From an uncultured Actinomycetota bacterium (GTDB lineage Bacteria > Actinomycetota > Actinomycetes > JAFAQI01), in the NCBI GenBank assembly GCA_963770565.1, contig CAVYQE010000011.1, positions 800,001-864,000 on the forward strand: a stretch of 64,000 bases of DNA, in the 5' to 3' direction. The translations under genes were made by a program, and so were the position numbers. Shown here piece by piece: positions 2,014 through 60,208 of this stretch; position 1 is the first letter of the stretch, and each line of letters begins with the position of its first letter. The notes under the pieces are model-generated. The model did not search any database. It was not told where the DNA came from and was given only the letters and a program-made list of their open reading frames with translations.

Positions 2014-2763
2014 GTGAGCGACATCTACCTCGTTGAGTTCGGCGGAGAGGACTCGCCGGGCCGTGCGGAACGCGACGCGGAGCAGCGTCGACTCCGCGCT
2101 CGCTGGACCCAACGGCTCGCCGAAAAGGTCGGCCTGTCCGAGCTGGCCGCGGCCGAGGTGGCGTCCGCGGTGTTTGACCATCGCGATCAGTCGGGGCAGC
2201 CGTGCCTGTGTGGCTGCCACCCGCGGCTGGACGGGCTGCACGATGGCGGCTGGGACTGCCGCTGTACTTGGGACGAGACGCGACGTGAACGAGAAGCCCG
2301 GTCGTGGGCCGAGCGGCTTAAGGACCCGGTGTTCGACGAGCTTCGCAAGGAGCACGACGCAGAAGAGCGCGCGATCACCGCCTGGCTGGGCACGCAGGTC
2401 GACGTCAGCGCGCGACGGGTCACGTCGTTCGCGCCGGTGCAGTGGGACGGAGTGATCGACGGTCACTCGTTCTACTTCCGTGAGCGCCACGGCCAGTGGC
2501 GGATCGAGATCGACCTGGAACCCACCGGCGAGTTTGCCAACCGACTCATTGACGTGCGGGACGGCGACGCCGTGACGGAGTCGGTCCCGATCGAACGCCG
2601 CGAGGTCATCGCCGACGGGCTCGACGGGGCGCTGGGATCAACGCCTGTCGAGCATCTTGCGCATGTCGTGCGCGCGGTCCGGCGCCACCTCGGGCGACAG
2701 CAGTGCGCCCATCCCGGCGCAGTGTTCTTCTGTCCGCTGTGCGGCGCAGCCAGCGCCGAGTGA
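2014..2763 (+). CDS. Hypothetical protein with Cys/His clusters (possible Zn-binding)
   Basis: 249 aa ORF; CLCGCHP, CRC, CAH...CPLC. Confidence 0.6.
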   Translation: MSDIYLVEFGGEDSPGRAERDAEQRRLRARWTQRLAEKVGLSELAAAEVASAVFDHRDQSGQPCLCGCHPRLDGLHDGGWDCRCTWDETRREREARSWAERLKDPVFDELRKEHDAEERAITAWLGTQVDVSARRVTSFAPVQWDGVIDGHSFYFRERHGQWRIEIDLEPTGEFANRLIDVRDGDAVTESVPIERREVIADGLDGALGSTPVEHLAHVVRAVRRHLGRQQCAHPGAVFFCPLCGAASAE

Positions 2764-2796
2764 CGCTCCCGTCCGCCTACGCCCGATGATGGCGCG

Positions 2797-7884: not shown

Positions 7885-10800
7885 CTAGCCGATGACCTTT
7901 CGCGCCTCGTCGTCCTCGAATGGGTTGTGGTTGTTCGGGGTCGAGTTCGGATCCCGCTGCCCGGCCTTGATCAACTCCGCGGTGGCGGTGGTCGGCAGTT
8001 TGCCCTTGACCACAAGCACGAGACTGAGGGTGACGGTCTTCTCACCGCCGATCGTCCGCACCACCCAGTGGCCGGACGACTTCTGAAACTTGCCGCTGCT
8101 TGCCTTCGCCGATTTCAGTGTCAGACCTCGGGGGACCTTCACCGATACGACGTCCCCAGTCGCGGCGAGCGGATAGGAGTCGTGCAAGGACACCGTCAGG
8201 TGAAGGAGCTTGCCCTTCTTGGCCTTACCCGTGACCTTCATCGTGATGTTCAGGTCTCGCTCCTTGATCAGCGATACGCATGCCTTCCCGATCCCCTTGA
8301 CGCTGCTCGATGCCTGGCTGTGGTTGGAAACGGTTGGGCAGTTGTCCTTGGTATTGACAATGCCGTCATGGTCGGCATCGGCACTCATGGCCTGTTGCCA
8401 CGGATCGATGCCTGGCTCGGTCGAGGTCGAGGCGTCGCTGGTGTCAGCGCGCGCGTGCGCCGCCGATTGTGGGGCCCACGCCCAAGAGTCGACTAGGACT
8501 GGTACCGGCGTGTACTGGAGGCCGGCCCAGTCATCGTGGCTGGTCAACTGGCTGCCCACAGGCACGGGGCTCGAGCAACCGTACGCACCTGAATCGTCCG
8601 ACTGGGACTCGGTGACAGCAGATGTGTCGATCCTGCCGTTGTCGTTCCAATCGATCGGCGTGAAGATTGACGCGGCCAGGAGCCCGCAGCTGCCGGCAAC
8701 GACGTTACCGGCGGAGTTTCGAGTGGGTCCCTGGTAAACAGTCGTCGTCCAGTCGCCGAGCGTGTCCCTCTTCACGGTGCCGGCGATCGCGGCGTTCTCG
8801 TTGAGTGCGCCCTCGTTGAGGCTGGGAAGCGAAGCGCGCGAGTAGTCGAGCGGACGGTTGGGCACGACGTCGCGGTAGAGAAGGTTGTAGTTCATGACAC
8901 TCAGGTAGTTCGGCTTGAAGTTCGTGTCGTCACCGCCACCGTGATGCAGCCCAAGGGTGTGGCCGAACTCGTGCATCATGGTGGCCGCTTGGACTTGCGC
9001 AAGGCAGCTGGCGTAGTCGGTGCACTGGGTTGGCCAGCCACCAGCGACAGCGATGGTTCGCGGCATTCTGAGTGCGTTCGGGTCGCGGCTGCTTCTCATC
9101 GCCGGTCCGAGTGTGATCACCGCGGTTCGGCCGGCGATGTCCGCCTCGCCGGTGACGTTCGGGCCGCCACTCATGGCGTCGCCAAAGAAGATGTAGCGCC
9201 AGATCATGTGCTTAGCGCCGAGAATCTGCCAACAATCTGACGAGTTGCGATCCTCGAGGGACCCAAACACACCGGCGCAGTCGCGGTCGCCATCCCGGAT
9301 GTCGATCAGCTGACTCTGGGTCATCGCATGCTCGCCCGGGCGCGGGCTGACCTCGTCGTCGCTGAGCTTCTCGTCATCCGTGGTCGCACCCAGGTGCAAA
9401 CGGATGCCGGTGTGAGACGGGTCGTTCGTCGCGCTCACCGGGCTGTCTGCAAACGCCTCTTGTACGTCGACAAGCGCCTGCTGCTTCGGTGCGAAGCCAC
9501 GGTAGTAGTCAACCTCCGCAAACAGATCCCGCCGGGTTGGCGATGCGCCGTAGGCCTTGAGGTCGAGGTCGCTCTTGCCGTCTCCGTCAAAGTCGAGGCC
9601 TCGGGTCTCCCACTCGTCACAGATGCCGTCACCGTCAGCATCGTCCGAGGTCTGACCAGCCAGGGGCGCGCAGATCGGCGACACCTCTGAGGTGTTTCCG
9701 TCGGCATCTGTTGCCGTGGCGGAATAGCTGACGAAGACGCCGGGATGAGGGACACCGAAGTAGAACGTGCCGTCGGGCTGAACCGTGGCGGTACCCAACC
9801 AGACCGGCGCCGCGCCCCAACTGTCCACCTGATCCGCCGGCTGGGGATCCGCTGCGATCTGTCCAGCGCTCAAGCCGTAGATGTCCACGACTTCGGATGC
9901 GGTCGAGGCGGGCCGTGGGCTCAACGTCCCGGTGACGATGGTTCCGCCGTAGATGGGCAGTCCGGGGTTGTTCGGCTGGATCGTCGACATGACCGCCGTC
10001 GGGAAGTTGATCGCGCCGTTCGCTCCCTCATCGGCGTCGTGTTCATCGTTCGGTAGCGGCTCGTTCGCATCTACCGGCTTGTCGATGAAAGCGATCGGCA
10101 GCTTCGAGACGTCGAGGATCCAGTTGCCTCGAATCGTGTCGTCGTTCACCGTGCCGTCCAACGCGACGCCGTCGCCCGACGTATCAGCGATGATGTTGCA
10201 CGCGCCGGCGCATACGTCTTGCGGGGTCTGGTCGACCGAGTAGCCGATGACGTTGCCGGAGGCTTGGTTCGTCAAGCTGACACCACTGCCGCCAATGCCG
10301 ACCTTGTTGTCGCCGAGGATCCCGATGGCGTTTCCCTCGATCAGATTCTTCGTCGTGGCACTGCCGTCGAGTAGTACGCCGTCCTTGTTTCCAGCGACCA
10401 CGTTCCCGGAGCCGCTCGCCGTGCCACCGATGACGTTGTTCGGTGAGTTCTCGACCTGGATCGCGTCGTCGGAGTTGTGGAGCTTTCCGCTGCCTGCGGC
10501 ATTCGTGCCGATGTGGTTGCCGGAGACGGTGTTGCCGCCCGGACCGTCGAGGTGAATGCCGGCGCCACCGTTGCCCGAAATCACGTTTCCGGCAGTGCCG
10601 ACGCCGCCGATGGTCACGTTGCTGGGTGCGTCGGTGGTTGCCTCGTAAGGCTCGTAGTAGTAGCCGATACCAGGGCCGCCATTGCCCAGTCCCGGGTCGG
10701 AGTCGGGATCGGTCCCGATGTCGTTCGCTTGGATCACGTCTCCGGTATCCGCGGCACCGTCAAGCCGCAACCCGTCGTGCTTGTTGCCGGAGATCACGTT

Positions 10801-12078
10801 GCCAGCGCCAGGCTCTCCGACGACGACATTCGCCGCGTTGCTCACCCAGGCGCCGATGCCGTTGCCAACCGGGTCGCCCTCCGCGTTAAGACCGATCACG
10901 TTGTTGCTCACCGTCGTGCCGGCGGCGTCGATGTCGAGGCCGAGGTAGGTGAGGGTCGAGGTTGATCCGGGCAGCACCGCGTTGCCGGAAATCAGATTGC
11001 CGTCGTCCGGATCCGGTCCGCCGACCACAACATTCTTCGCGGCACTCGATGAAGCGGAGCCGAAGTACGTCACCAGAACGCCGATGTCGTTGGGTAGTGA
11101 AGACGTACCACTGGCGTCCAGTCCGATGGTGTTGCCTTCCACCAGTGTGCCGTCCCCGCCCGTCGCGATGACGATGCCGGGAGCGTCGTTGCCGCTGATG
11201 ATGTTGCGGTCAGCGGCTTGCGGTCCACCGATCACGGAGTTCGCATCGGCGATCTCGATGCCGGCGCTGTTCTGGCCGAAGTCGCCGTTGGGAGCGGCGT
11301 TTCCGCCGCTCGGATCCGTGCCGATCCGGCAGCCGGTCACGATGTTGTGTCCGACTCCGCCGGTCAGCAGGATGCCGATGTTGGCAAAGTTGTCGACGGT
11401 GAGGTTCTCGATGGTGGAGTTGCCGCCCTCGATGGTGAGCGCCGGATCTTGGTTGCCGGACTCGGCCGAACCTGAGATCGCGGTTGCGCTCGCGGTGCCT
11501 CCGTCGATGATGACGGGCTCGGTGATGGCCGGCAGTGTCGAGGTCGGTGCGACCGTCGCGACGCTGAAGGTGATGGTGTCCTTGTCCGTCGACGCGTTCG
11601 CCTCCTGAATAGCGGCACGCAACGTGCAACCGCCGCCGTCGAGTGCATCCACCGCGCAGACCCCGTCCCCGACATCGGCATCGGGTTGGTCAGCATCGGA
11701 ATCCACCACGAATGTCTGAGGTCCGGCATCCGCCTCGGGACGCGCCACCGCTGCGTTGACTGCGGGCGGAACAACCGGCTTCGCGATGCCCCGCTGCGGC
11801 AGCCGCGTGAGCGTGAACTGCTTGTTGAACTTGCCGAGGTCGTAATCAGGCAGGGCACGGTCATCGGCGCGCATCCTGGCCGTTTCTGGAGCCAGGTGAG
11901 TGGCAGGCGTTGCCGCCGACGGGTTGACCCGTGCGACCGAATCGACGGTCGTGACGTGTCTGGCTCCAGGGTGCGTCGGGTGAGCCGTTCCACGTTCGGC
12001 CTGCGCCGCCGGTGCCGCGATCGTGCTACTCACGCACGCGGCGACGATCATCGTCGAGGTGCGCCGGTAAAGCCTCAT
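7885..12078 (-). CDS. Large secreted CSLREA-domain/beta-helix protein with HExxH zinc-peptidase-like, TSP3 and DUF11-like domains
   Basis: Signal peptide; GDGVC...CTLRAAIQEAN; many NxIGTD/NVISGN repeats; MHEFGHTLGLHHGG...NYLSVMNY; DADHDGI....DNCP; DPNSTPNN tail. Confidence 0.8.
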   Translation of the reverse strand: MRLYRRTSTMIVAACVSSTIAAPAAQAERGTAHPTHPGARHVTTVDSVARVNPSAATPATHLAPETARMRADDRALPDYDLGKFNKQFTLTRLPQRGIAKPVVPPAVNAAVARPEADAGPQTFVVDSDADQPDADVGDGVCAVDALDGGGCTLRAAIQEANASTDKDTITFSVATVAPTSTLPAITEPVIIDGGTASATAISGSAESGNQDPALTIEGGNSTIENLTVDNFANIGILLTGGVGHNIVTGCRIGTDPSGGNAAPNGDFGQNSAGIEIADANSVIGGPQAADRNIISGNDAPGIVIATGGDGTLVEGNTIGLDASGTSSLPNDIGVLVTYFGSASSSAAKNVVVGGPDPDDGNLISGNAVLPGSTSTLTYLGLDIDAAGTTVSNNVIGLNAEGDPVGNGIGAWVSNAANVVVGEPGAGNVISGNKHDGLRLDGAADTGDVIQANDIGTDPDSDPGLGNGGPGIGYYYEPYEATTDAPSNVTIGGVGTAGNVISGNGGAGIHLDGPGGNTVSGNHIGTNAAGSGKLHNSDDAIQVENSPNNVIGGTASGSGNVVAGNKDGVLLDGSATTKNLIEGNAIGILGDNKVGIGGSGVSLTNQASGNVIGYSVDQTPQDVCAGACNIIADTSGDGVALDGTVNDDTIRGNWILDVSKLPIAFIDKPVDANEPLPNDEHDADEGANGAINFPTAVMSTIQPNNPGLPIYGGTIVTGTLSPRPASTASEVVDIYGLSAGQIAADPQPADQVDSWGAAPVWLGTATVQPDGTFYFGVPHPGVFVSYSATATDADGNTSEVSPICAPLAGQTSDDADGDGICDEWETRGLDFDGDGKSDLDLKAYGASPTRRDLFAEVDYYRGFAPKQQALVDVQEAFADSPVSATNDPSHTGIRLHLGATTDDEKLSDDEVSPRPGEHAMTQSQLIDIRDGDRDCAGVFGSLEDRNSSDCWQILGAKHMIWRYIFFGDAMSGGPNVTGEADIAGRTAVITLGPAMRSSRDPNALRMPRTIAVAGGWPTQCTDYASCLAQVQAATMMHEFGHTLGLHHGGGDDTNFKPNYLSVMNYNLLYRDVVPNRPLDYSRASLPSLNEGALNENAAIAGTVKRDTLGDWTTTVYQGPTRNSAGNVVAGSCGLLAASIFTPIDWNDNGRIDTSAVTESQSDDSGAYGCSSPVPVGSQLTSHDDWAGLQYTPVPVLVDSWAWAPQSAAHARADTSDASTSTEPGIDPWQQAMSADADHDGIVNTKDNCPTVSNHSQASSSVKGIGKACVSLIKERDLNITMKVTGKAKKGKLLHLTVSLHDSYPLAATGDVVSVKVPRGLTLKSAKASSGKFQKSSGHWVVRTIGGEKTVTLSLVLVVKGKLPTTATAELIKAGQRDPNSTPNNHNPFEDDEARKVIG

Positions 12079-14401: not shown

Positions 14402-14430
14402 TTGCACTATTGCGGTTTGGCAGGAATGAT
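14402..14430 (+). promoter_or_regulatory. Putative sigma70-type promoter for the riboswitch/ehr operon
   Basis: TTGCAC-17 nt-AATGAT, ending 8 nt before the riboswitch 5' end. Confidence 0.5.
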
Positions 14431-14438
14431 GCGCCCTA

Positions 14439-14527
14439 GGCGATGAGGCTCGCCTTTGCCCGCGGTTCGCCCCGCTGATGGCCTCTACCGAGCAGCGCCA
14501 ACGTCATGTTGGCGTCGGTAGAGGAGG
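14439..14527 (+). promoter_or_regulatory. Fluoride (crcB) riboswitch with translational expression platform
   Basis: GGCGATGAGGCTCGCC...GCTGATGGCCTCTAC: P1 GGCGA/TCGCC, pseudoknot GAGGC/GCCTC; alternative helix CCTCTACCGA/TCGGTAGAGG covers the SD GAGGAGG. Confidence 0.9.
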
Positions 14528-14533
14528 ACCGTC

Positions 14534-15487
14534 GTGATTGCACCGGCGGTGGCTCAGGCCGCGCAGGTCGTCACGGTTGCCGTCGGCGCGCCGTGGATCT
14601 CCGGCGTGATCGCCCGGGTTGAAGCACGGCTGCAAGGTCGCCGGGGGCCGCGGGTGCTGCAGCCATATTTCGACCTGGCGAAGTTGTTCCGCAAGGAGTC
14701 TCTTGCGCCTGATGGCGCGAGCTGGATTTTCCTCGCGGCCCCGTTCATTGCGTTCGTGGCTTATCTCACGGTCCCGTTCCTGATCCCGGTCCTGACGAAC
14801 TTTCCGCTGCCGTTCGGGTCCATGGGCGACATTCTCGGCGGTGGGCTGATCCTCGCGTTGGGTAGCTTCTTCACCGCGACCGCAGCGGCGGAGACGTCGT
14901 CGCCGTACGCGCAGATCGGTGCTTCTCGGGCCAAGACGTTCTCTGCTCTTGCGGAGCCGACGCTGCTGCTCGTGTTTGTCGCTGTCGCGACGATTACCTC
15001 AACGGACCTTCCGTACGCGTTGGCCAAGACTGTGCATCATTCGACCGCGCAGATCGTGCGCCCTGGGCATCTGCTCGCTGCCGCGGCGTTGTTGTGTGTG
15101 ATCCTGTTCGAGACTGGTCGGATCCCGATCGAGGGCCACCATGGCACCAACGAGTTCGGGTTCATCGACGAGGGCAAGCCGTTCGAGCACTCGGGCCCGT
15201 ATTACGCACTGCTGACCTGGGCGTCGCACATCAAGCAGATGGTGCTCTACGTGATCTTCCTTGATGTGTTCCTGGTCCCATGGGGCCTGGCCGGTACTCG
15301 CGGGGTGGGCCCGCTGCTGCTGGCGGTCCCGATCATTCTCGGCAAGTGTGCAGGTCTTGGCGTCGTCGTAGCGGTCATCGACAACACCTGGGCGAAGCTT
15401 CGCCTGTACAAGATCACTGAGTTCCTCGCGGCGGCGTTCCTGCTCGCCGTTCTTTCGACGTTCACGTTGACGTTCGGAGGTGGCTGA
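14534..15487 (+). CDS. hycD: HycD/HyfC (NuoH-like) membrane subunit
   Basis: ARLQGRRGP..LQPY.DL.KLF.KE; ETGRIP; EHSG. Confidence 0.85.
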   Translation: MIAPAVAQAAQVVTVAVGAPWISGVIARVEARLQGRRGPRVLQPYFDLAKLFRKESLAPDGASWIFLAAPFIAFVAYLTVPFLIPVLTNFPLPFGSMGDILGGGLILALGSFFTATAAAETSSPYAQIGASRAKTFSALAEPTLLLVFVAVATITSTDLPYALAKTVHHSTAQIVRPGHLLAAAALLCVILFETGRIPIEGHHGTNEFGFIDEGKPFEHSGPYYALLTWASHIKQMVLYVIFLDVFLVPWGLAGTRGVGPLLLAVPIILGKCAGLGVVVAVIDNTWAKLRLYKITEFLAAAFLLAVLSTFTLTFGGG

Positions 15488-16153: not shown

Positions 16154-17635
16154 ATGAGCGGGGTCCTGGTCGCGCTGCTGTTCGTCGGGTTCGCGGCTTC
16201 GCTGGTGTGCCTGGTGGCTCCGCCGATGGTGATGAAGGCCGTCACCATCGTCGCCGGAGTCAGCACGCTTGGCCTCACGGTCAGCCTGGTTCCGACCGTC
16301 GCGACGCACAACATCACGGCCGGAAAGTATCTGCGGGCCGACGCCCTGTCCGTCGTCTTCCTCCTTGCCACTGGCGTGCTTTACGCACTGGTGTCGGTCT
16401 ACACCGTGGGATACGTGAAGGGCGAGCACGGCGGCCACGAGGTGGACCGCTACCTGCGGCGGTTCTACATCGGAATCAACGTCTTCGGGGCGTCGATGCT
16501 CGCCGCGCCACTGGTCAACGGGCTCGCGTTGCTGTGGATCGCAATCGAGATCACCACGGTCGTGTCCGCGCTGCTGGTCGCGATCGACATCAGCGACACC
16601 GCCACCGAAGCCGCCTGGAAGTATCTGCTGATCGCCTCGGTCGGACTCGGCGTCGCGCTGCTCGCGACCATCGTGATGGACTACGCTGGCGCGCAGGTCT
16701 TCGGCTCCTCGTTCGATCTTTCGTTCGCTCCACTGATCCAGGCCGGACATCAGCTTCCGGCGACCCCGGTGCGGCTTGCCTTCGTGCTGTCAGTGGTCGG
16801 GTTCGGGACCAAGGTCGGCCTCGCGCCGATGCACACCTGGCTGCCCGATGCGCACGCCGAGGCACCGACGCCGGTGTCCGCGATGTTGTCCGGGGCACTG
16901 CTTACTACGAGCTTCTACGCGGTCTTGCGCTACTTCCAGATCGCCACCGGCTCGTTGGGGTCGGCGTTCCCGCGGCACGTACTGCTCGTCTTCGGGCTCA
17001 TGTCGTTGCTGGTCGCGGCGCTATATCTCCTTGACCAACAAGATATCAAGCGGTTGTTCGCGTACTCCTCCATCGAACACATGGGGGTGCTCGCGATCGG
17101 GATGAGTTTCGCGTCACCGCTCGCTCTGTTCGGTGTCCTGCTGCACGTCATCGCGCACGCCGCCGCGAAGGGCAATGCCTTCATGGGGGCCGGGGTGATG
17201 GTGCGCAAGTACCGCACCAAGCAGCTCACCTCGTTGCGCGGGGGATTGAGCCTGCTGCCGTGGACCGGCCCGCTGCTGCTGGCGTCGGTGCTCGCGCTGT
17301 CGGCAAGCCCACCCTTCGGGATCTTCCGGAGCGAGTTCGCGATCGTCGCTGGTGGGTTTGCCGGCGGCGGAAGCGCGGCGGCAGCGGTAATGGTCGCGCT
17401 GGTCACGGTGGCATTCGTGGGGCTGACTCTGGCCTCGACCCGGATCCTGTTCGCTGCGCCGCCGCGCCCGGGCCCCGGCACCGACAGCCCGATGTACCAC
17501 CCGGGTGAGCCCAGCGGGTGGATGGTGGCACCGATGGTGGGCGGGATCGTGATCCTGGTACTCCTTGGCGTGCACATCCCCGGCGACCTCGCGGAGTTGC
17601 TCCGGCGTGGCGCCGCCGAGCTCGGGGCAACGTGA
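16154..17635 (+). CDS. hyfF: HyfF/HycQ proton-conducting antiporter-like subunit
   Basis: LWIAIE.TT, EAAWKY, GFGTKVGLAPMHTWLPDAHAEAP, KRLFAYSSIEHMG. Confidence 0.88.
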   Translation: MSGVLVALLFVGFAASLVCLVAPPMVMKAVTIVAGVSTLGLTVSLVPTVATHNITAGKYLRADALSVVFLLATGVLYALVSVYTVGYVKGEHGGHEVDRYLRRFYIGINVFGASMLAAPLVNGLALLWIAIEITTVVSALLVAIDISDTATEAAWKYLLIASVGLGVALLATIVMDYAGAQVFGSSFDLSFAPLIQAGHQLPATPVRLAFVLSVVGFGTKVGLAPMHTWLPDAHAEAPTPVSAMLSGALLTTSFYAVLRYFQIATGSLGSAFPRHVLLVFGLMSLLVAALYLLDQQDIKRLFAYSSIEHMGVLAIGMSFASPLALFGVLLHVIAHAAAKGNAFMGAGVMVRKYRTKQLTSLRGGLSLLPWTGPLLLASVLALSASPPFGIFRSEFAIVAGGFAGGGSAAAAVMVALVTVAFVGLTLASTRILFAAPPRPGPGTDSPMYHPGEPSGWMVAPMVGGIVILVLLGVHIPGDLAELLRRGAAELGAT

Positions 17636-19143
17636 TGACCGCATCCCCGACGGTGACCGTGAAGTCCGGTGTCGACAGCTGGCGGCAGGAAGTTGCCCGC
17701 CGACATCGGGAAGGACAGCGCCTCGCTGCGTTGTTTGCGACCGCGAGCAAGGGCGGTGCGCTGCGATTGACCGCGGCGCTCGCCACAGCCTCGCGAATCG
17801 ATCTGGTTGATGCCGTGCTGCCGGGCGGGGCGACGAGCTATCCCGCTCTGACGCCGTTGGTACCGGCGGCGTTCTGGTACGAACGTGAGATCCATGACCT
17901 GTTCGGCATCCGGGCCGACGGCCATCCTCGACTCGACCCCCTGGTGCTGCCGCTGCACGATGGCGACCTGCGTCCCCGACCAGGCGCCACGGGGCAGCCC
18001 GCACAGCTCACTCCTGACGAGACGCCAGTGACCGGTCATCTTGCGGGCTCCGGTTTGTTCACCTTGCCGCACGGACCCGTGCGGTCCGGCGTGATGGAAT
18101 CCGTGGAGTACCTCGTCGAAACACCCGGCGAGGACATCCCGCACCTTCGAGTTCGGCCGTATGCGAAGCATCGCGGAATCGAGAAGCGATTCGAAGCCCT
18201 CGACCCAGCGACCGGTGTGCTGCTGGCCGAGCGCGTCGAGGGGATCGCGTCGGTGGCGCATGCGATCGCCTACTCATCCGCGCTCGAAAACCTCAGCGGC
18301 ATCGAGGTTCCCCCTGCGGCGGCGATGATTCGGGTGGTTCACGCTGAGCTGGAACGGATCGCGAACCACCTCGACGCCGCGATGCGGCTCTGCGACGCCG
18401 CGGCGCTCGGGGTCGCGACCGCCCGGTTTGGCTGGCACAAGGAACGCGCGATGCGGCTACGTAGTGCGACCTGTGGGAGCCGCTACGGTCGCGGTGTCGT
18501 CTCCCCGGGTGGGGTCCGCGCCCCGTTGGCGCTACCTGCTGCTGACCTCGCCGCGCAACTGCAGGTGTTGGAACGCGATATCAGTGGTGATGAACGAGCG
18601 GCGATGACCACCGCGTCGCTGCTGGATCGGTTCCGTGGGACCGGCCCGTTGCCGACCGAGCTGGCCAGGCGTCACGGTGCCCTCGGACCGATCGGGCGTG
18701 CTTCGGGTGCGGGCGAGGATGTCCGAGCTTCGCGGCCGTACGCCGGATACCGGACCTTGCAGGTCGATGCTGTCCCCGGACCCGCCGACGAGGATGTGCA
18801 GGCGCGGTTGCGGGTGCGCTGGGCCGAGCTGCACGAGTCCTTCCGGCTCCTGCGGCTCGCACTGGCCAGCCTGGTGGAGTTAGCAAAGCCGAACGGCAGC
18901 CCCGAGCTTCGGACCGACGTTTGGCTTCCCGACGGGCGTGGGATCGGGTGGGCCGAAGCCCCACAAGGCGAAGTGCTGTACGTGATCGACGTGGCCGGCG
19001 GGCAGCTCCAGCGAGTAAAACCACGGTCGGCGTCGTTTCATAACCTGCTGCTCTTCCATGCGGTCTTCGCCGGCGACATCTTCACCGACTTTCCGTTCAT
19101 CGAGGCAAGTTTCGGACTGTCGATCGCAGGGGTGGCGTTGTAG
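17635..19143 (+). CDS. hycE: HycE/HyfG-like (NuoC-D fusion) large subunit without [NiFe] ligands (Ehr-type)
   Basis: WYEREIHDLFGI, HGPVRSGV.E, KHRGIEK, ELERIANHL, EAPQGE; L1 reads RVEGIA, C-terminus has no DPCxxC. Confidence 0.85.
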   Translation: MTASPTVTVKSGVDSWRQEVARRHREGQRLAALFATASKGGALRLTAALATASRIDLVDAVLPGGATSYPALTPLVPAAFWYEREIHDLFGIRADGHPRLDPLVLPLHDGDLRPRPGATGQPAQLTPDETPVTGHLAGSGLFTLPHGPVRSGVMESVEYLVETPGEDIPHLRVRPYAKHRGIEKRFEALDPATGVLLAERVEGIASVAHAIAYSSALENLSGIEVPPAAAMIRVVHAELERIANHLDAAMRLCDAAALGVATARFGWHKERAMRLRSATCGSRYGRGVVSPGGVRAPLALPAADLAAQLQVLERDISGDERAAMTTASLLDRFRGTGPLPTELARRHGALGPIGRASGAGEDVRASRPYAGYRTLQVDAVPGPADEDVQARLRVRWAELHESFRLLRLALASLVELAKPNGSPELRTDVWLPDGRGIGWAEAPQGEVLYVIDVAGGQLQRVKPRSASFHNLLLFHAVFAGDIFTDFPFIEASFGLSIAGVAL

Positions 19144-19941
19144 ATGCCCTGGGTCTTTCGCGGTCTTCGCAACGGCGTCGTGACCACCGGGTATCCGGCA
19201 CGTTCTGATGACTACGCCGATGAGTTTGCTGGTGCCGTGCAGGTGTGGCAGTCCGAGGCAGATCCCGGGCCGGACGTCACGGGGGTCTGCCCGACTGATG
19301 CCATTGGCTACCAGGGGGAGTTGGTCTCGGTGGATCGCGGCCGCTGCATCCTGTGCGGTGTCTGTGTTCATGCCTACCCCGACATCTTCTTTTACGGCCG
19401 GGGCAGCCACCTTGCCCGACTGGACCGGCGTGCTCTGGTCGTACCGGAAGGTCTCGTCGGCGATGGCGGTGAGGTTGCGGCGGTGCGAACGGAGTTGGCG
19501 CGACGCGTTCGTGCGCTACGTCGCTCGGTGCACATTCGCCATATCGATGTCGGTTCCGACGGGTCAGAGGAATGGGAGATCCAGGCACTAACCAACCCGA
19601 CGTATGACGTTCACCGGCTCGGGATTTTCTTCACCGCCAGCCCTCGCCATGCCGACATCCTGATGATCACTGGCGCTGGCGCGCGCGGCATGATCGAGCC
19701 GCTGCGGCGCACCCAGGAGGCGATGCCCAGCCCGGTCGTCATCATCGCGGTCGGCACCGATGTGATCAGCGGTGGCCTGATCTCCCCGACCTATGCGACC
19801 ACCGGCGGCCTGACCGACGAGATCGAGGTCGACGTCTATGTCCCCGGATCGCCCCCGCCACCGTTTGCGATCCTGCACGGCATCCTGCTCGCGCTCGGCC
19901 GGCTCCCGGCAGGGCGCGAAGTCCCCGGGGCGGCGTCGTGA
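19144..19941 (+). CDS. Ferredoxin plus NuoB/HycG-like fusion; NuoB domain has no Cys
   Basis: VCPT...CILCGVC; RSVHIRH.D.GSDGSEEWEI; ASPRHAD.L; VGTD; VPGSPP. Confidence 0.85.
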   Translation: MPWVFRGLRNGVVTTGYPARSDDYADEFAGAVQVWQSEADPGPDVTGVCPTDAIGYQGELVSVDRGRCILCGVCVHAYPDIFFYGRGSHLARLDRRALVVPEGLVGDGGEVAAVRTELARRVRALRRSVHIRHIDVGSDGSEEWEIQALTNPTYDVHRLGIFFTASPRHADILMITGAGARGMIEPLRRTQEAMPSPVVIIAVGTDVISGGLISPTYATTGGLTDEIEVDVYVPGSPPPPFAILHGILLALGRLPAGREVPGAAS

Positions 19942-22088
19942 CGACCGCGGGACTGATCCTCGCCGCCTTGTGCACCCTCGGTGGTGCCGGCGTCCTTGAC
20001 GTGATTGTGGGGCCAACGCGACCGTCTGTCCGGATGGTGCCGTATCTCGCGATCGGCGCTGCGTCGGTGCTGCTCGCGATCGCCGGCTTCCGCGCGGGCC
20101 TTGGCCATGGCGGCAGGCTCAACCTCGGGACCTTCCTCGGCTTCGGGCACAGCGCCTTGCAGGCCGACCCGCTCGCCGGGTTGTTCCTCGCACTCACCGG
20201 GCTCGTTGCCACCCCGATATCGCTGGCATTCGTGGCCTGGTCCCGCGACAGCGACGACGTTCCCTACCGCGGGCTCGCGGCGGCGGTCGCTCTCACGGTG
20301 GCTGCGGTCAGTGTGATCGTGCTGGCCGACAACGCGTTCGTGTTCCTGTTCGCCTGGGAGGGCCTGTCGGTCGCGTTCTTCCTGCTGGCCGGCTACAGGA
20401 GAGAGCGACCAGGGCAGGTCGTCACGAGTATGTTGACGCTCGGGTTCTCCAAGGCATCCGGCGCGCTGCTCCTGCTTGCCTTCGGGCTTCTCTACGGCGC
20501 TACGGGCAGTTTCAACTTCGCGGCGTGGTCACACGTCGGGGGCGTGGCGCACGGCGCTGTCTATGCGCTTGCGATCGCCGGGTTCGCCATCAAGGTCGGG
20601 CTGGTTCCGGTGCAGGTGTGGATGCCCATCGGATACGGAGCCGCACCCGGACCTGCGCGGGCGCTGATGTCCGCGGTGGCCGCTAATGTCGGCTTTTACG
20701 GCATGTGGCGTGTTCTGGGTGTCCTCGGCACGCCGCCCGAGTGGCTTGCCATCACGGTGGTCATCCTCGCGGGACTCACCGCGCTGCTCGGCATTGCCCA
20801 TGCCGCGGTGCAGGGTGACCTGCAACGGCTGATCGCCTACTCCAGCGTCGAGAACGGCGGGTTGATCACCGCCGGCTTCGGGATCGCGCTCGTCGGCGCG
20901 GCAGGCCGGCTGCCCGCCCTGGTCGCGCTCGGGCTGCTGACCAGCAGCCTGCAGATGGTCGCGCACTCCTTCGCCAAAAGCAGCCTCTTCCTGTCATCCG
21001 CCGTCATCGAGCAACACAGCGGCACCCGCGAGCTCGACAAGCTGCGCGGCGTCGGGCTCGACGCGCCGCTAGCGGGCGCCACGTTCTCGATCGGTGCACT
21101 GACTCTCGCCGGACTTCCTCTAACCCTTGGGTTCGTCTCCGAGTGGTACCTGCTCGAGTCTGTTATGCAGCTGTTTCGGCTCTCCTCACTCACCCTCGCG
21201 ATGTCCCTCGCGATCGCGGGCGCGCTCATCGCGCTCGCGGTCGGCTTCGCCGGATTCACCTTCGTCCGGCTCGTCGCGTTGACCATCCTGGGTGGTACCG
21301 GTCGACGCGCCGCCTCGTCGCGTCCTCACCACTTCCTAGGGTTGTTAGGCGGCCTTGGCCTTACCCTGCCGGCGTTCGCTTGCGTCGGGCTAGCCGCCGT
21401 CAGCCCTTGGGAGATTCGGTTCCTTGCCCATGGCCTGTCTGCGCTCGTCCCACGCTCTACGACCGACGGAGCTCTTCAGGCGCCGTGGGTCCTGCAGCCG
21501 ATTTACGGCGGCTTTTCTGCGCTGTCGCCATCCTGGCTCGCGGTGGAGATGCCACTGCTGGGGGTGGTTGTCCTGTGCTTCGTGACCATCGTGACTCGCG
21601 GTTCGTTCCTCGCTGTCCGCCGGGTTCCGCCGTGGCGGTCCGCCTCCGCAGGCGTGGACGGTGATGCGCGCTACACGTCGTTCGCGTTCGCGAATGTCAC
21701 GCGACATGTCCTGGCCAACCTGCTGATGACTCGAAGTGGGCTGTCCCATCTTGAGGGGCACTCCGACGCGACATCAGTCGGCGAGTTCGCCGGGCCTGAC
21801 GTGCCGATCGGAGAAGAACCCGGTGACGGACAGACCGCCGCACCGTCGCGTGTCCTTGTCGCGACCAGCGGTCCCGTCGCGTTCGAAGACGCGGACAGGG
21901 CGGGTGCTTCCTACACGACCGACGTCGTCGAGGTCGTGGAGACGTTCCTCTACCGACCGCTGCTTACTCCGCTGCGACGCGCCGTCGGCGCCGCGAAGCG
22001 GCTTCAGTCCGGACGTCTTGATGCCTATATTAGCTATATCCTGATTACGCTGATTGCGCTCCTCGCAGTCGTGGTTGCGCTGTCATGA
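19938..22088 (+). CDS. hyfB: HyfB/HycC-like antiporter-type membrane subunit
   Basis: FLFAWE, GF.IKVGLVP..VW.P, RLIAYSSVENGG, HSFAKS.LFL, GLP...GFVSEW, LQSG....Y. Confidence 0.85.
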   Translation: MTTAGLILAALCTLGGAGVLDVIVGPTRPSVRMVPYLAIGAASVLLAIAGFRAGLGHGGRLNLGTFLGFGHSALQADPLAGLFLALTGLVATPISLAFVAWSRDSDDVPYRGLAAAVALTVAAVSVIVLADNAFVFLFAWEGLSVAFFLLAGYRRERPGQVVTSMLTLGFSKASGALLLLAFGLLYGATGSFNFAAWSHVGGVAHGAVYALAIAGFAIKVGLVPVQVWMPIGYGAAPGPARALMSAVAANVGFYGMWRVLGVLGTPPEWLAITVVILAGLTALLGIAHAAVQGDLQRLIAYSSVENGGLITAGFGIALVGAAGRLPALVALGLLTSSLQMVAHSFAKSSLFLSSAVIEQHSGTRELDKLRGVGLDAPLAGATFSIGALTLAGLPLTLGFVSEWYLLESVMQLFRLSSLTLAMSLAIAGALIALAVGFAGFTFVRLVALTILGGTGRRAASSRPHHFLGLLGGLGLTLPAFACVGLAAVSPWEIRFLAHGLSALVPRSTTDGALQAPWVLQPIYGGFSALSPSWLAVEMPLLGVVVLCFVTIVTRGSFLAVRRVPPWRSASAGVDGDARYTSFAFANVTRHVLANLLMTRSGLSHLEGHSDATSVGEFAGPDVPIGEEPGDGQTAAPSRVLVATSGPVAFEDADRAGASYTTDVVEVVETFLYRPLLTPLRRAVGAAKRLQSGRLDAYISYILITLIALLAVVVALS

Positions 22089-22450
22089 GTCGCCAGCACC
22101 ATGAGCCGAGCCATCGAATCGAACGCCAGGCAGTGCAACTTACCCTTTACCTAGCCGAGCCACACGTCGGTGACCGACGGTCCGAGGTCGATGAACTCCT
22201 CCGCGCCGCGGTCCGAGCTGGAATGTCGGGGGGAACCGTCTTCGCCGCATATCAGGGCTTTGGTCGACGCCATGAGCACGAGCCAACGATGTGGCATCGG
22301 CCCGATGAAACACCACTGACCGTCATCTTCGTCGACCAGCCGCAACGAATCGAGGGGTTTCTTACGGTCGTCGACGAGATCCTGCCCGATGCGGTTGCGG
22401 TTACTGAGCAGGTGCGGTCCATCCGCTACATCCGGCCCCATCAGCACTAA
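22085..22450 (+). CDS. DUF190 (PII-like, usually CrcB-associated) protein
   Basis: LTLYL.E...ELL..A..AG.SG.TVF....GFG...P.TV.FVD...RIE.FL; ATGA overlap with hyfB. Confidence 0.8.
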   Translation: MSRQHHEPSHRIERQAVQLTLYLAEPHVGDRRSEVDELLRAAVRAGMSGGTVFAAYQGFGRRHEHEPTMWHRPDETPLTVIFVDQPQRIEGFLTVVDEILPDAVAVTEQVRSIRYIRPHQH

Positions 22451-22606: not shown

Positions 22607-23083
22607 TCATTGCTTGGGTGGGGCCGGCACTACCAGCACAGGCTTCCGTTGCTTGCGCGTCAACGCTTGCGGAACCGAACCATGCAAGAGCCGCTGCGCA
22701 AGCCCCCGGCCGCTCGCTCCAACCACGATCATCAAGACGTCATGCTCATGGGCGACTTGAGCAAGCGCGTGGGCAGGTTCATCTCGCGCAGTTTCATATG
22801 TCCACTCCACAGTTGCCCCCGCAAGCAGCCTTTCTGCGTGCTGTCGCTCCTCCTCCACCGTCCGCTCAGCGGCCACCTCGTAGTCGGCGGCATCAGGATC
22901 GATCGGATAGTCCTGAAGGTCGATTACGTGCAACACCACCAGACTCGCCCCAAGAGCACGGGCGAGATCGGCGGCGACGATCACCGCACGGTGGCTTGCC
23001 GGATGTTGGTCATATCCCACCAGCAGGCGGTTCGAACCACCGAGATGCTCGAACTCAACTCTGGTATCTAGCCGAGTATCCAC
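22607..23083 (-). CDS. Universal stress protein (UspA family)
   Basis: LLVGYD...AS..A...AA.LA...L.VLHV; IVVG..G.G....L.GSV...L......PVLVVP. Confidence 0.9.
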   Translation of the reverse strand: MDTRLDTRVEFEHLGGSNRLLVGYDQHPASHRAVIVAADLARALGASLVVLHVIDLQDYPIDPDAADYEVAAERTVEEERQHAERLLAGATVEWTYETARDEPAHALAQVAHEHDVLMIVVGASGRGLAQRLLHGSVPQALTRKQRKPVLVVPAPPKQ

Positions 23084-23112
23084 CTGACGGATCTCCCTCC
23101 AGCGCGTTAACC

Positions 23113-23179
23113 GGAAGGAGCCATCATCCCGACGGGCGGTTCAGATCCATTCAGAGGGATCTTGGCGGGGTCCATCGCC
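23113..23179 (-). promoter_or_regulatory. Second fluoride riboswitch (slightly degenerate), upstream of uspA
   Basis: Minus strand GGCGATGGACCCCGCC-hairpin-AACCGCCCGTCGGGATGATGGCTCCTTCC; TACTCT -10 box 6 nt upstream. Confidence 0.7.
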
Positions 23180-23944
23180 GATGAGAGAGTACCTCGAAAC
23201 TCGCCAACGGACCTCGCCAATCTGCATGGCCCGATCCCTCCCTTCTTCGGTCGGAGGGCAGCGCTATCGGAGGCTCTTGGCACATCGGGATTGGGTCCGA
23301 GGTAGCTAAGGCGTTGGACGATGATGTCTGCCGTTCAACATGCCGCCTCGTGCACCCACGAGCGACCCTCATAGGTTGTTGACGTTTCCGAAATCGATAG
23401 GGCATCCTCGGGAACGCTGGCACCCTTCCCGATACAGAACTGTGGGAGGTTCGGTAATTGGCGCACGCACTCGGAGCAGCGGCGGCACTCCTGACCTGTG
23501 CTGCATTGTTGGTTAGCGTCCACCCGGTTGCCCATGCTCCCAACGGCAAGCTCCCCGCGTTGCATCGCGTCCTTGGCGCTTCCTACCGATCGGTGGTTCC
23601 CCTCGAAGCCCACCGCCTTTACGTCGTCATCACCCTGGCGTCAGCAGGGTCCGTTCTCGGGCTATTTGGCGCTGTCGTGTTGGCGAGATCACTCGTGGCA
23701 CTGTGACGAAGGCACCGGACCCGTCGAGCGGAGCAAGTGAGCAGTTGCTTTCGGTATCGTGTGTGCCACACGCTGCTCTGTGGCTGCTCGCGGTAAGGTC
23801 ATCTCGGCGATGGAACCCGCCAGGTCGGCCCACAGCCGGCCGAAGCGCCACCTCGGCTGACGGCTCCTGGTTAAATCGCGGCGCTCAGAACGCCGCCTTG
23901 GAGCGGGGGCGAGATAGTGCAACGCTTGCGCTTTGCAAGAAGCA

Positions 23945-24165
23945 TGACGCGTTACAGTGCGGGGCCAACCGCGACCCAACAGATCTTGGAGATCTTCACG
24001 GCGACCGAGCCAGTCCTTGCCAATGTGACGCCTGGCGTGGAATACAAGGCGATCGGCTCGGTGCTGGCGTTCACGATCCGGTGGGTGGCAGTCGCTGAGG
24101 GCCGCGACCCGCGGGAGGTGCTCGACGGGATCGCTCGCAAGTTTGGTCTGACGACAACCGACTAA
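23945..24165 (+). CDS. Small hypothetical protein
   Basis: Short ORF (start uncertain) ending W.A.AEGRDP.EVL..IA. Confidence 0.3.
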
Positions 24166-24320: not shown

Positions 24321-25628
24321 TCAGCTGGCCAGCCCATAGGGAAGGTGTTCGTTGGCCTCGATCTCGATAAGCCGGTTGTACTTCGCGACCCGCTCACCAC
24401 GCGCGGGCGCCCCGGTCTTCATATGACCACAGCTGCTGCCGACGGCCAGATCGGCAATGAAGGTGTCCTCGGTCTCACCTGATCGGTGAGAGACGAACTG
24501 CGCCCAACCGGCGCCGCGGCAAGTCGACATCGCCTCGAGTGTCTCGGTCACTGTGCCGATCTGATTGACCTTGATCAAGGACGCATTGCCTACCTTGCGG
24601 GCGATCGCTTTCCGAATGATCACCGGGTTCGTGCACAGGATGTCATCGCCGACGAGTTCCACCCGGTCCCCGATCCGAGTGGTCAGCCGCTCCCAGCCCT
24701 CCCAGTCGGACTCGGCCAGACCGTCCTCCAACAGCCAAACGGGGTAGCGGTCGATGATCTCGACGTATCGCTCGATCATTTCATCGCTGGATAACGCCTC
24801 ACCGGCGACGTGGTATGCGCCGTCGCGATAGAACTCGCTCGACGCTGGGTCCATCGCGAGCGCGATGCTGTCGCTTCCGGGACGGTAGCCGGCTGCCTCG
24901 ATAGCCGAGACCAGAAGGGTCAGGACATCCTCGGGCGCGGTGATCTCCGGAGCGAAGCCGCCCTCATCGCCCAAACCCGTCGCGTAGCCCTTATCCATGA
25001 GGCTGCGGCGCAGCGCGCCATAGATCTCCGCACCGGCCCGCACGGCCTCTGCAACCGTAGGCGCGCCCAACGGAGCGAGCATGAACTCCTGGAAGTCGAG
25101 ATCGTTGGAGGCATGCACTCCGCCGTTGATCACATTGAAGTGCGGCACCGGGATCCGCGGTACCACTCCGGGCGGCGCCAGCGATCGCCATAGCGGTTCA
25201 CCGGAGACCATCGCTGCCGCTCGAGCGACCGCCATCGAAACGCCGACGATCGCGTTGGCACCCAACCTGGACTTGTCCGGCGTACCGTCCAGCGCGATCA
25301 GCGACCCGTCCAGCTCAGCCAGGTCGATGAACTGCCGCCCGCGGACCATGTCGGTGATCTCGCCGTTCACATGGGCCACGGCGTTCAGCACGCCCTGCCC
25401 GTTGTAGCGCGCGGGATCGCCATCGCGTAGTTCCTTGGCCTCGCGCGACCCCGTCGATGCTCCCGAAGGAACCCCGGCTCGCGCGCAAACACCGCCATTC
25501 AGCTCGACGGTGACAGCGAGCGTCGGACGCGAGCGCGAGTCGAGGATCTCGATCGCCGAAAGCGCATCAATGATCAGCAAAGCACCCACCTCCACAGGGT
25601 CGAAGCCCGAAGGGCCAGTCTCGGTCAC
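24321..25628 (-). CDS. eno: Enolase (island-borne copy)
   Basis: EILDSR..PT, VPSGASTG, NGG.HA..DFQEFM, GDEGGFAP, VGDD, LIKVNQIG, SHRSGETED, KTGAP.RGER.AKYN. Confidence 0.95.
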   Translation of the reverse strand: MTETGPSGFDPVEVGALLIIDALSAIEILDSRSRPTLAVTVELNGGVCARAGVPSGASTGSREAKELRDGDPARYNGQGVLNAVAHVNGEITDMVRGRQFIDLAELDGSLIALDGTPDKSRLGANAIVGVSMAVARAAAMVSGEPLWRSLAPPGVVPRIPVPHFNVINGGVHASNDLDFQEFMLAPLGAPTVAEAVRAGAEIYGALRRSLMDKGYATGLGDEGGFAPEITAPEDVLTLLVSAIEAAGYRPGSDSIALAMDPASSEFYRDGAYHVAGEALSSDEMIERYVEIIDRYPVWLLEDGLAESDWEGWERLTTRIGDRVELVGDDILCTNPVIIRKAIARKVGNASLIKVNQIGTVTETLEAMSTCRGAGWAQFVSHRSGETEDTFIADLAVGSSCGHMKTGAPARGERVAKYNRLIEIEANEHLPYGLAS

Positions 25629-59989: not shown

Positions 59990-60135
59990 CGGGCTCCGCC
60001 CCGCTTACCTCGACGGTTGTCGTTGGAGCCCTCGTCGTACGCGGGTATCCCGGCTCGCCTCAGGATCGAGGCCTACGGTTGCGGGTCAGCGCCGGACTTC
60101 GACCGGACTTCCCCCGCCCACGGCGGTTGCACTGC
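59990..60135 (-). promoter_or_regulatory. Cobalamin riboswitch
   Basis: Minus strand GGGGAAGTCCGGTCGAAGTCCGGCGCTGACCCGCAACCGTAG...GAGCCGGGATACC, upstream of the ECF operon. Confidence 0.88.
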
Positions 60136-60208
60136 CGATGCCACCACAGGCCGGGTCCGCAGTCAACGCAGTGCCTCTGACCGGCGCGTTGCGACTACGG
60201 TGTCCCGC

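Follow-up and report, generated by a model that had tools for sequence, protein, structure and literature searches.

The closest described relatives of the locus treated here are the Ehr complexes (Ech-related or energy-converting-hydrogenase-related complexes), which are named for GSU0739-45 of Geobacter sulfurreducens and are described as being of unknown physiological role (PMC7894505, PMC6349859). In the definition given in PMC6349859 they combine antiporter-like subunits with a large subunit that lacks Ni-Fe ligands, and the proposals made for them in the same source presuppose a redox partner, for example formate dehydrogenase. We analyzed a stretch of 64,000 nucleotides (hereafter the window) from an uncultured Actinomycetota bacterium (contig CAVYQE010000011.1, positions 800,001 to 864,000). 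On its plus strand an open reading frame (ORF) at 19144–19941 translates into a protein of 265 amino acids in which half a NuoI is fused to a NuoB-like small subunit. This gene is the fifth of a tightly packed plus-strand operon of six genes of the Hyf/Ehr type, which is followed by a DUF190 gene. With the Ehr complexes the operon shares the group-4-hydrogenase-like set of NuoL-like, HyfE-like, large and small subunits as well as the absence of Ni-Fe ligands from the large subunit, and it thereby falls under the cited definition. It differs from the Ehr complexes, which are known here by description, in the fusion of the small subunit to half a NuoI, in the lack of any proximal cysteine and in its position behind a candidate fluoride riboswitch. 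As the electron wire is lost, acidic residues are conserved in its place and a candidate fluoride-sensing RNA lies upstream, the complex could well move ions during fluoride stress without carrying electrons. That it is a redox-dead ion translocator with the peripheral arm as a cap is a reading of the sequences to which we would give about an even chance.

In the fusion subunit, Pfam finds Oxidored_q6 (PF01058) at residues 143–248 (64.4 bits; cut-off 27) and weak single-cluster 4Fe-4S ferredoxin matches at residues 61–87, and NCBIfam adds a match to NuoI (NF004541, residues 13–110, E = 2.2e-5) that remains below its cut-off. Together these three matches identify the product as a NuoI-NuoB (HyfH-HyfI) fusion. 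According to phmmer, the best solved relatives are HycG of E. coli (7z0s_G, E = 1.7e-27) and MbhJ of P. furiosus (6cfw_J, E = 2.2e-25). In the corresponding alignments GSDGSEE is aligned with the CxxC stretch of the references, GTD with GxC and PGSPP with PGCPP, and from this alignment to the cysteine-bearing stretches it follows that D139, E142, D206 and S236 occupy the ligand positions of the proximal cluster. A first-pass annotation made from the letters alone had claimed a NuoB/HycG-like domain with its four cluster cysteines exchanged for Asp/Glu/Asp/Ser, and the Pfam match and the alignments to HycG and MbhJ bear this out. Its further statement that the flanking motifs RH.D.GS and ASPRHAD are intact agrees with the translation. 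Cysteines occur in the fusion subunit only at positions 49, 68, 71 and 74, which leaves the NuoB domain without a single one. The four proximal [4Fe-4S] cysteines that mark a NuoB/HycG/MbhJ small subunit (three in the membrane-bound sulfane reductase, MBS) are accordingly absent, and the PF01058 match above cut-off and the NuoB fold are present. An AlphaFold2 model built from 111 sequences (mean predicted local distance difference test score 85.4, predicted template modelling score 0.83) was matched by Foldseek to MbhJ with a target-normalised template modelling score of 0.87 and a root-mean-square deviation of 2.4 Å. The retained cysteines form the pattern Cys-Pro followed by CxxCxxC, with Tyr78-Pro79 at the site of the expected last Cys-Pro. 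Measured against the ligand lists given for MbsN and NdhI (PMC8165549, PMC6358722), C49, C68, C71 and C74 are the predicted ligand set of a medial, N6b-type cluster. The annotation had assigned these four cysteines to one cluster, an assignment which is upheld and can be refined to a NuoI-like, medial-type set.

The replacements are conserved. Among the 120 best homologues (58–100% identity), positions 139 and 206 are Asp throughout, position 142 is Glu in 91 and Asp in 29, and position 236 is Ser in 111, Ala in six and Asn in three. The four N-terminal cysteines are invariant in all 120 sequences, and 76 of the 265 positions are kept in at least 118 of them. When 401 genomes of the class were searched without bias, 12 were found to hold a full-length orthologue, the window's own genome included. 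All 12 have Asp at 139, Asp at 206 and Ser at 236, and position 142 is Glu in eight, Asp in three and Val in one. A further 36 loci were found partly via the peptide pattern DGSEEWEI. As this pattern fixes positions 139 and 142 by construction, the agreement of these loci at both positions carries no weight here. This search bias does not touch positions 206 and 236; at 206 all intact genes of the 36 loci have Asp, and the frameshifted gene of L057 has Glu. The codons of 50 genes vary synonymously at all four replaced sites, with GAC in 42 and GAT in eight genes at site 139, GAC in 39 and GAT in nine at site 206, and six codons from both Ser families at site 236. Judged by this codon record, the replaced residues are held while the DNA drifts, i.e., the replacements are under selection.

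For the phylogeny of the replacements, we inferred a tree from 164 NuoB domains by maximum likelihood, excluding the four ligand columns. The trees contain neither fragments in which the NuoB domain is covered over fewer than 115 residues nor two of every three DEDS rows from L023-L058, and the 164-domain tree also omits the long-branch N-terminal piece L028_16055. The window protein belongs to a cysteine-less clade, supported by Shimodaira-Hasegawa-like approximate likelihood-ratio values of 96 for 52 rows and 91 for 63 rows, which contains no member with all four cysteines (CCCC); a first NuoB tree agrees with this result. Across the family, cysteine loss takes at least six changes, which lie on the starred branches of the 164-domain tree. 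Compared with 80 cysteine-retaining relatives, the only NuoB-domain positions specific to the cysteine-less clade are D139, G140, W144 and D206, of which G140 is Asn in most of the others. In the wider cysteine-less clade the two Asp are found in 58 and 59 of 63 rows, position 142 may be E, D, V, I, T or C, and position 236 may be S, A, N, D, R, C or E. A strict four-ligand site does not fit this variation. The first-pass annotation had proposed a coordinated swap and not decay, which the invariance of D139 and D206 among the 120 homologues, the synonymous codon turnover and the clade without a cysteine-retaining member support. The conservation of all four replacements, which it put forward as a check, holds for the two nearly universal Asp, but not for positions 142 and 236, which vary in the wider clade.

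The large subunit has lost its metal ligands as well. Its L1 motif reads ERVEGIASVAH where HycE has CxxC, and its C-terminus reads EASFGLSIAG where true hydrogenases have DPCxxC; the true hydrogenases of the same phylum show DRICGICGxAH and DPCYSCTDR. Neither of the two signatures of group 4 [NiFe]-hydrogenases, L1 (RxCGxCxxxH) and L2 (DPCxxCxxH/R), is present, and the operon therefore encodes an Ehr-type complex and not a hydrogenase. At the level of predicted ligands the electron wire is broken at three points, namely at the distal cluster of NuoI, at the proximal cluster and at the NiFe cysteines of the large subunit. What is left of the iron-sulfur capacity is one isolated medial-type [4Fe-4S] ligand set. 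The large subunit has 17 positions specific to operons of the cysteine-less type, e.g., R303, K308, R406 and Gln483, the last of which is Arg in 12 of 13 other sequences. Arg406 was considered as a stand-in for His169 of T. thermophilus Nqo4, which tunes cluster N2, and was dropped, as His169 aligns with Gly324.

The best matches in sequence and fold for both the small and the large subunit come from Hyf and formate hydrogen lyase (FHL) of E. coli (HycG, HycE; 7z0s) and from the membrane-bound hydrogenase (MBH) of P. furiosus (MbhJ, MbhL; 6cfw). These complexes keep a NiFe site and three [4Fe-4S] clusters (PMC8165549), whereas the window complex has ligands for one. In NCBIfam the subunit set corresponds to HyfB, C, E, F, G, H and I, with all matches below the curated cut-offs; the Hyf equivalog models give 343 bits for HyfF (cut-off 610) and 330 bits for HyfB (cut-off 667). 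Weinberg et al. (2010; PMC2864571) reported that the crcB motif, i.e., the fluoride riboswitch, precedes 'formate hydrogen lyase' genes, and a review from 2024 repeats this link and ties it to anaerobic fermentation (PMC11139923). Where these texts discuss the link, the genes are taken as true FHL genes, whereas the operons examined here have no NiFe ligands, those of the cysteine-less clade also having no proximal cluster, so that they cannot encode hydrogenases. For these operons, this corrects the repeated reading in which formate hydrogen lyase is turned on by fluoride riboswitches to serve fermentation. Four true hydrogenase loci showed no fluoride riboswitch match.

The link to fluoride comes from matches to the riboswitch model RF01734 of Rfam (gathering score 34 bits). 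Of the orthologous operons, 42 could be assessed, and 37 of them have a same-strand match at the corresponding position; 21 of these 37 matches reach at least 34 bits. Within the class sample, all eight assessable genomes have such a match 4.65–4.85 kb upstream of the NuoB-like gene, and the contigs of four further genomes are too short for an assessment. A set of 36 named loci from Actinomycetes, Acidimicrobiia and Thermoleophilia includes 32 assessable ones (L032, L041 and L043 are cut by contig ends, and L058 is a remnant). The riboswitch is matched in 28 of these 32 operons, with 16 of the 28 matches reaching the gathering score, and it precedes the first gene by 36–165 nt in 27 loci and by 887 nt in the remaining one. 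L035, which is among the 28, comes from a genome (G413) that is unpublished. The phylum sample contributes two orthologues, one with a weak match of 18.9 bits, the other with no more than a partial match on the opposite strand. These matches place the operon in the fluoride regulon, with the leader aptamer of the window itself being a candidate. In this leader, the 3′ tail of the aptamer, CCUCUACCGA, can pair with UCGGUAGAGG, a stretch that shares nucleotides with the GGAGG ribosome-binding site of the gene starting with GTG at 14534, and the predicted fold of 14425–14545 has a free energy of −52.2 kcal/mol (z = −2.24). The hairpin would act as a translational ON switch.

The membrane arm is, by sequence comparison, the best conserved part of the complex, and its antiporter-type charged residues are kept. 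With the nearest relative (L003) the membrane subunits H, E and F share 86, 90 and 83% identity, compared with 68% in the large subunit and 71% in the small one. The functionally important residues of the antiporter-like subunit NuoM are E144, K234, K265 and E407. On the alignment with E. coli NuoM, the HyfF-like subunit keeps E144, K234 and E407 and has Thr in place of K265. The HyfB-like subunit likewise keeps the Glu of transmembrane helix (TM) 5, the Lys of TM7 and the Glu of TM12 and has Asn at the position of the TM8 Lys. The three retained residues are found in nearly all of 68 HyfF-like and 57 HyfB-like sequences. The loss of the TM8 Lys was tried as a marker of the cysteine-less form and fails for the HyfF-like subunit, in which the Lys is missing in every Ehr-type operon examined, the cysteine-keeping ones included, and is present in the true hydrogenases. 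For the HyfB-like subunit the marker works only in part, the Lys being kept in the adjacent cysteine-retaining paralogue. A comparison can also be drawn with Mrp (cation/proton antiporter family 3, CPA3) antiporters, which share MrpA/MrpD-type subunits (PF00361, Proton_antipo_M) with the window complex and, on our reading, also a mode of ion exchange without redox. They differ in that the window complex retains a full peripheral arm. Equivalents of MrpB, C, E, F and G did not appear in the Pfam or NCBIfam scans, and the full MrpA-G set is thus not present.

The redox-dead ion translocator can be pictured as follows. The fluoride riboswitch would turn on a Hyf/Ehr-type complex of six subunits, which is related to complex I and to the group-4 hydrogenases and would no longer do redox chemistry. 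It would instead work as an Mrp-like cation/proton translocator linked to the proton-motive force and adjust cytoplasmic pH and ion balance when fluoride enters the cell. Such translocation might limit the trapping of fluoride by the weak-acid effect or offset the protons brought in by the cycling of hydrogen fluoride (HF) and F−. The peripheral arm would be retained as a cap with a structural or gating role, in which the conserved carboxylates and the new Trp144 may fill and polarise the vacated cluster pocket.

Several points weigh against this picture. The translocating role is one that we infer from sequence. The riboswitch match in the window's own leader (28.6 bits) stays below the gathering score, and four loci (L028, L040, L050 and L055) show no detectable RF01734 match at the orthologous operon. 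The central TM8 Lys is replaced in both antiporter-like subunits, by Thr in the HyfF-like and by Asn or Cys in the HyfB-like one, and proton transfer could be non-canonical or impaired by this loss. Proton import by a cation/proton antiporter would increase an acid load. A purely structural cap does not obviously explain the strict hold on three carboxylates, nor does it obviously explain the invariance of one Fe-S ligand set. Finally, as relatives with all their cysteines stand under the same riboswitch, the ancestral fluoride role of the family may have involved electron transfer.

These cysteine-retaining relatives deserve a closer look. In six loci (G021/L013, L023, L028, L029, L044 and L057) a paralogous Ehr-type operon with the same gene order adjoins the cysteine-less one. 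Its large subunit is NiFe-less in the four cases compared (L013, L028, L044 and L057), its small subunit keeps all four proximal cysteines in the three that were read (L013, L028 and L044), and a riboswitch of its own precedes it in five of five assessable cases. A single cell can therefore have two fluoride-induced versions of the complex, one with and one without the proximal cluster. A CCCC form from another family (L064) has a riboswitch of 36.5 bits 125 nt upstream. A third form of the small subunit, found in L060-L062 about 350 nt downstream of riboswitches of 45–47 bits, reads GSCGACESE / AACGPACGGG / PGSPP. Its fourth cysteine is replaced by Ser and the cysteines in its third stretch are shifted, a variant which recalls the three-Cys proximal cluster described for MBS. 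The first-pass annotation had linked the D/E/D/S residues to fluoride riboswitches. This link holds insofar as the operon is tied to riboswitches (37/42), but it is not unique to the replacements, as the cysteine-retaining operons (five of five paralogues, L064 and L060-L062) are riboswitch-linked too. The same annotation had stated that typical Ehr small subunits retain the proximal cluster, which is true of the other Ehr-type operons examined (L013, L015-L022, L064-L066).

One alternative to the ion translocator sees in the D/E/D/S pocket a putative site for a hard metal (Mg2+, Ca2+ or Mn2+), which would either hold the fold together or serve as a metal-fluoride sensor or gate for the membrane arm. 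Three strictly conserved carboxylates and a hydroxyl at positions which once converged on one cluster would suit such a site, and the operon that encodes them is, by its riboswitch matches, induced by fluoride. Although two bases must change to turn a Cys codon into an Asp codon, Asp is seen again at the first position in cysteine-less lineages that branch elsewhere in the tree (DTDN, DSSD, DAAD), and among the clade-specific positions of the small subunit there is no new basic residue that could pair with the carboxylates. However, in the wider clade position 142 can be V, I, T or C and position 236 can be A, N, D, R, C or E, and the riboswitch control of the cysteine-retaining relatives makes fluoride control independent of the pocket. 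The Arg of the HRGxE motif, which is reported to lie 3.7 Å from cluster N2 in complex I (PMC8042128), is moreover kept as Arg219 of the large subunit, where it could offset the charge of a carboxylate with no metal present. All in all, a metal site appears unlikely. A broader version, in which a complex-I-type machine has turned ligand- or ion-operated, would have the carboxylate pocket bind a hard cation, a metal-fluoride or an HF-derived species. This would allow direct sensing or removal of fluoride and, in bacteria without Fluc such as that with the complete genome G030 (see below), might even constitute the main defence; we consider this, too, an unlikely scenario at the sequence level.

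It is also conceivable that the complex is still a redox enzyme, in which the N6b-type cluster passes electrons to a substrate or quinone, or in which the carboxylates hold an iron or iron-sulfur center not ligated by cysteines. The N-terminal set of four cysteines, invariant in 120 of 120 homologues, and the close relatives that have medial and proximal clusters under the same riboswitch speak for it. None of the same 120 homologues has a cysteine at any of the four proximal positions, however, the large subunit has no NiFe ligands and the distal entry cluster is gone as well. According to PMC8165549, all solved members of the superfamily have a chain of three clusters, and even MBS, the most reduced one, keeps three proximal cysteines. 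An enzyme of this kind is thus quite improbable.

A further possibility is that the complex expels fluoride or HF through its membrane arm and the remodelled pocket, which would make it a third kind of exporter beside Fluc and CLC-F. A match to CrcB/Fluc is absent from 19 of 47 genomes that carry the operon. One carrier, G030 (L014, L071, L072, L074), is a complete genome of 2.4 Mb on one contig, in which neither the family model nor the CrcB of the window genome as protein query found a CrcB. Its only two fluoride riboswitches control the Ehr-type operon and two genes with MutS domain V, which leaves the complex as the sole membrane system of this regulon. The single CLC gene of G030 is located 760 kb from both riboswitches and has a GREGP motif that looks like that of a chloride-type CLC. 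Against export stands that the window genome has two crcB genes elsewhere, with a riboswitch of their own, and that 28 of the 47 carriers have CrcB, so that the complex is not a simple substitute for it. Most of the other CrcB-less genomes are, in addition, metagenome bins of unstated completeness, and no member of the superfamily is known to move anions. Fluoride export by the complex is accordingly very doubtful. That the operon is merely the decaying relic of a hydrogenase operon, for which the loss of all catalytic metal ligands, the fragmented genes in L044, L056 and L057 and the remnant L058 might be cited, can hardly be reconciled with the intact reading frame and its 76 conserved positions, the six-gene order shared across three classes of Actinomycetota, the conserved riboswitch, the translationally coupled junctions and the synonymous codon turnover at the replaced sites.

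Another actinobacterial group of Ehr-type operons, presumably to be named Rv0082-like (mycobacterial type), likewise has a large subunit without NiFe cysteines (L1 = ERISGDTS). These operons differ from that of the window in their gene order (small subunit, NuoL-like, HycD, HycP, HycQ, HycE), in the absence of a NuoI fusion and in the presence of four proximal cysteines in nine of nine cases examined. Within 10 kb on the same contig, no fluoride riboswitch match was found for them in 29 genomes (contig ends unchecked in 21). The literature searches aimed at this point turned up no paper describing a NuoB-like subunit devoid of cysteines, and none that connects Ehr complexes with fluoride stress. 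Complex I, NDH-1, MBH, MBS and FHL are described in PMC8165549 as needing an Fe-S chain that ends at the proximal cluster. The clade described here is conserved across three classes of Actinomycetota and has kept the architecture, but not the wire, and it therefore offers a natural test of the membrane arm and the coupling loops without redox. The fluoride switch also provides a testable physiological context for the orphan Ehr complexes.

The coordinates of the operon and its surroundings are compiled in Table 1.

Table 1. Operon, riboswitches and neighboring genes of the window, and related operons in other loci (positions of the latter refer to the respective locus).
Feature	Position	Strand	Evidence and remarks
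Fluoride riboswitch aptamer candidate, operon leader	14430..14494	+	RF01734, 28.6 bits, E = 1.6e-4; 40 nt before first gene
Putative expression-platform hairpin	14477..14533	+	RNA fold and sequence
NuoH/HycD(HyfC)-like membrane anchor	14534..15487	+	Pfam NADHdh, 2.6e-33; GTG start at 14534
HyfE-like small membrane subunit, 221 aa	15487..16152	+	NF008556, 1.6e-26, below its cut-off
HyfF/NuoM-like antiporter-like subunit	16154..17635	+	Pfam Proton_antipo_M, 2.2e-44
NuoC-NuoD/HycE-like large subunit without NiFe ligands	17518..19143	+	Pfam Complex1_49kDa, Complex1_30kDa
NuoI-NuoB fusion subunit	19144..19941	+	Pfam, NCBIfam, phmmer, AlphaFold2, Foldseek
HyfB/HycC/NuoL-like antiporter-like subunit, 716 aa	19938..22088	+	Pfam Proton_antipo_M, 3.6e-42; best solved relative HycC (7z0s_C)
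DUF190 protein	22085..22450	+	Pfam DUF190, 8.3e-16; start overlaps stop of HyfB-like gene
Universal stress protein	22607..23083	-	Usp domain, 2.6e-28
Second fluoride riboswitch	23108..23188	-	RF01734, 34.2 bits, just over gathering score; upstream of universal stress protein gene
Third fluoride riboswitch candidate	23797..23876	+	RF01734, 29.1 bits, E = 1.1e-4; followed by 82-aa ORF
82-aa ORF	23917..24165	+	GC content at third codon positions 0.76 in frame, coding-like
Enolase	24321..25628	-	Pfam Enolase_C, 1e-104; adjoins island
Paralogous Ehr-type operons in other loci	L013 9072-14602; L044 12979-20506; L029 18324-20761; L028 13303-19148; L057 438-5069; L023 15439-16488		
Third small-subunit form (CC.S)	L060 6954-7731; L061 762-1539; L062 4524-4934		

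The gene order H-E-F-G-(HI)-B is kept in all full-length loci, this six-gene order extending across three classes of Actinomycetota, and the gene junctions within the operon are translationally coupled. Culturable carriers include Streptomyces sp. HNM0575 and Streptantibioticus parmotrematis. The Pfam scan gave no match for the HyfE-like subunit, and NF008556, to which it is related, is the NCBIfam model of the hydrogenase 4 membrane subunit. As listed, the ORF of the large subunit overlaps the HyfF-like gene by 118 nt. An in-frame GTG at 17632 and an ATG at 17635 overlap the TGA stop codon of the HyfF-like gene, and alignments with orthologues leave roughly the first 20 to 55 residues of the listed ORF uncovered; the ATG at 17635 is probably the true start.

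In several orthologous loci a DUF190 gene follows the operon, and an enolase gene lies near it. Enolase is a classical target of fluoride; the RF01734 scan found no match directly upstream of the enolase gene of the window. The 82-aa ORF behind the third riboswitch candidate matches no family in Pfam or NCBIfam and has no relative in the other loci compared. Among the loci without a fluoride riboswitch at the operon, L050 has a cyclic di-AMP riboswitch of 67.8 bits nearby (2628–2786, minus strand). Elsewhere in the window, a gene at 7885–12078 (minus strand), upstream of the island, encodes a protein of 1397 amino acids with beta-helix, NosD-like, thrombospondin type 3 and DUF11 domains, and a cobalamin riboswitch is located at 60023–60151 on the minus strand (38.8 bits, above its gathering score).

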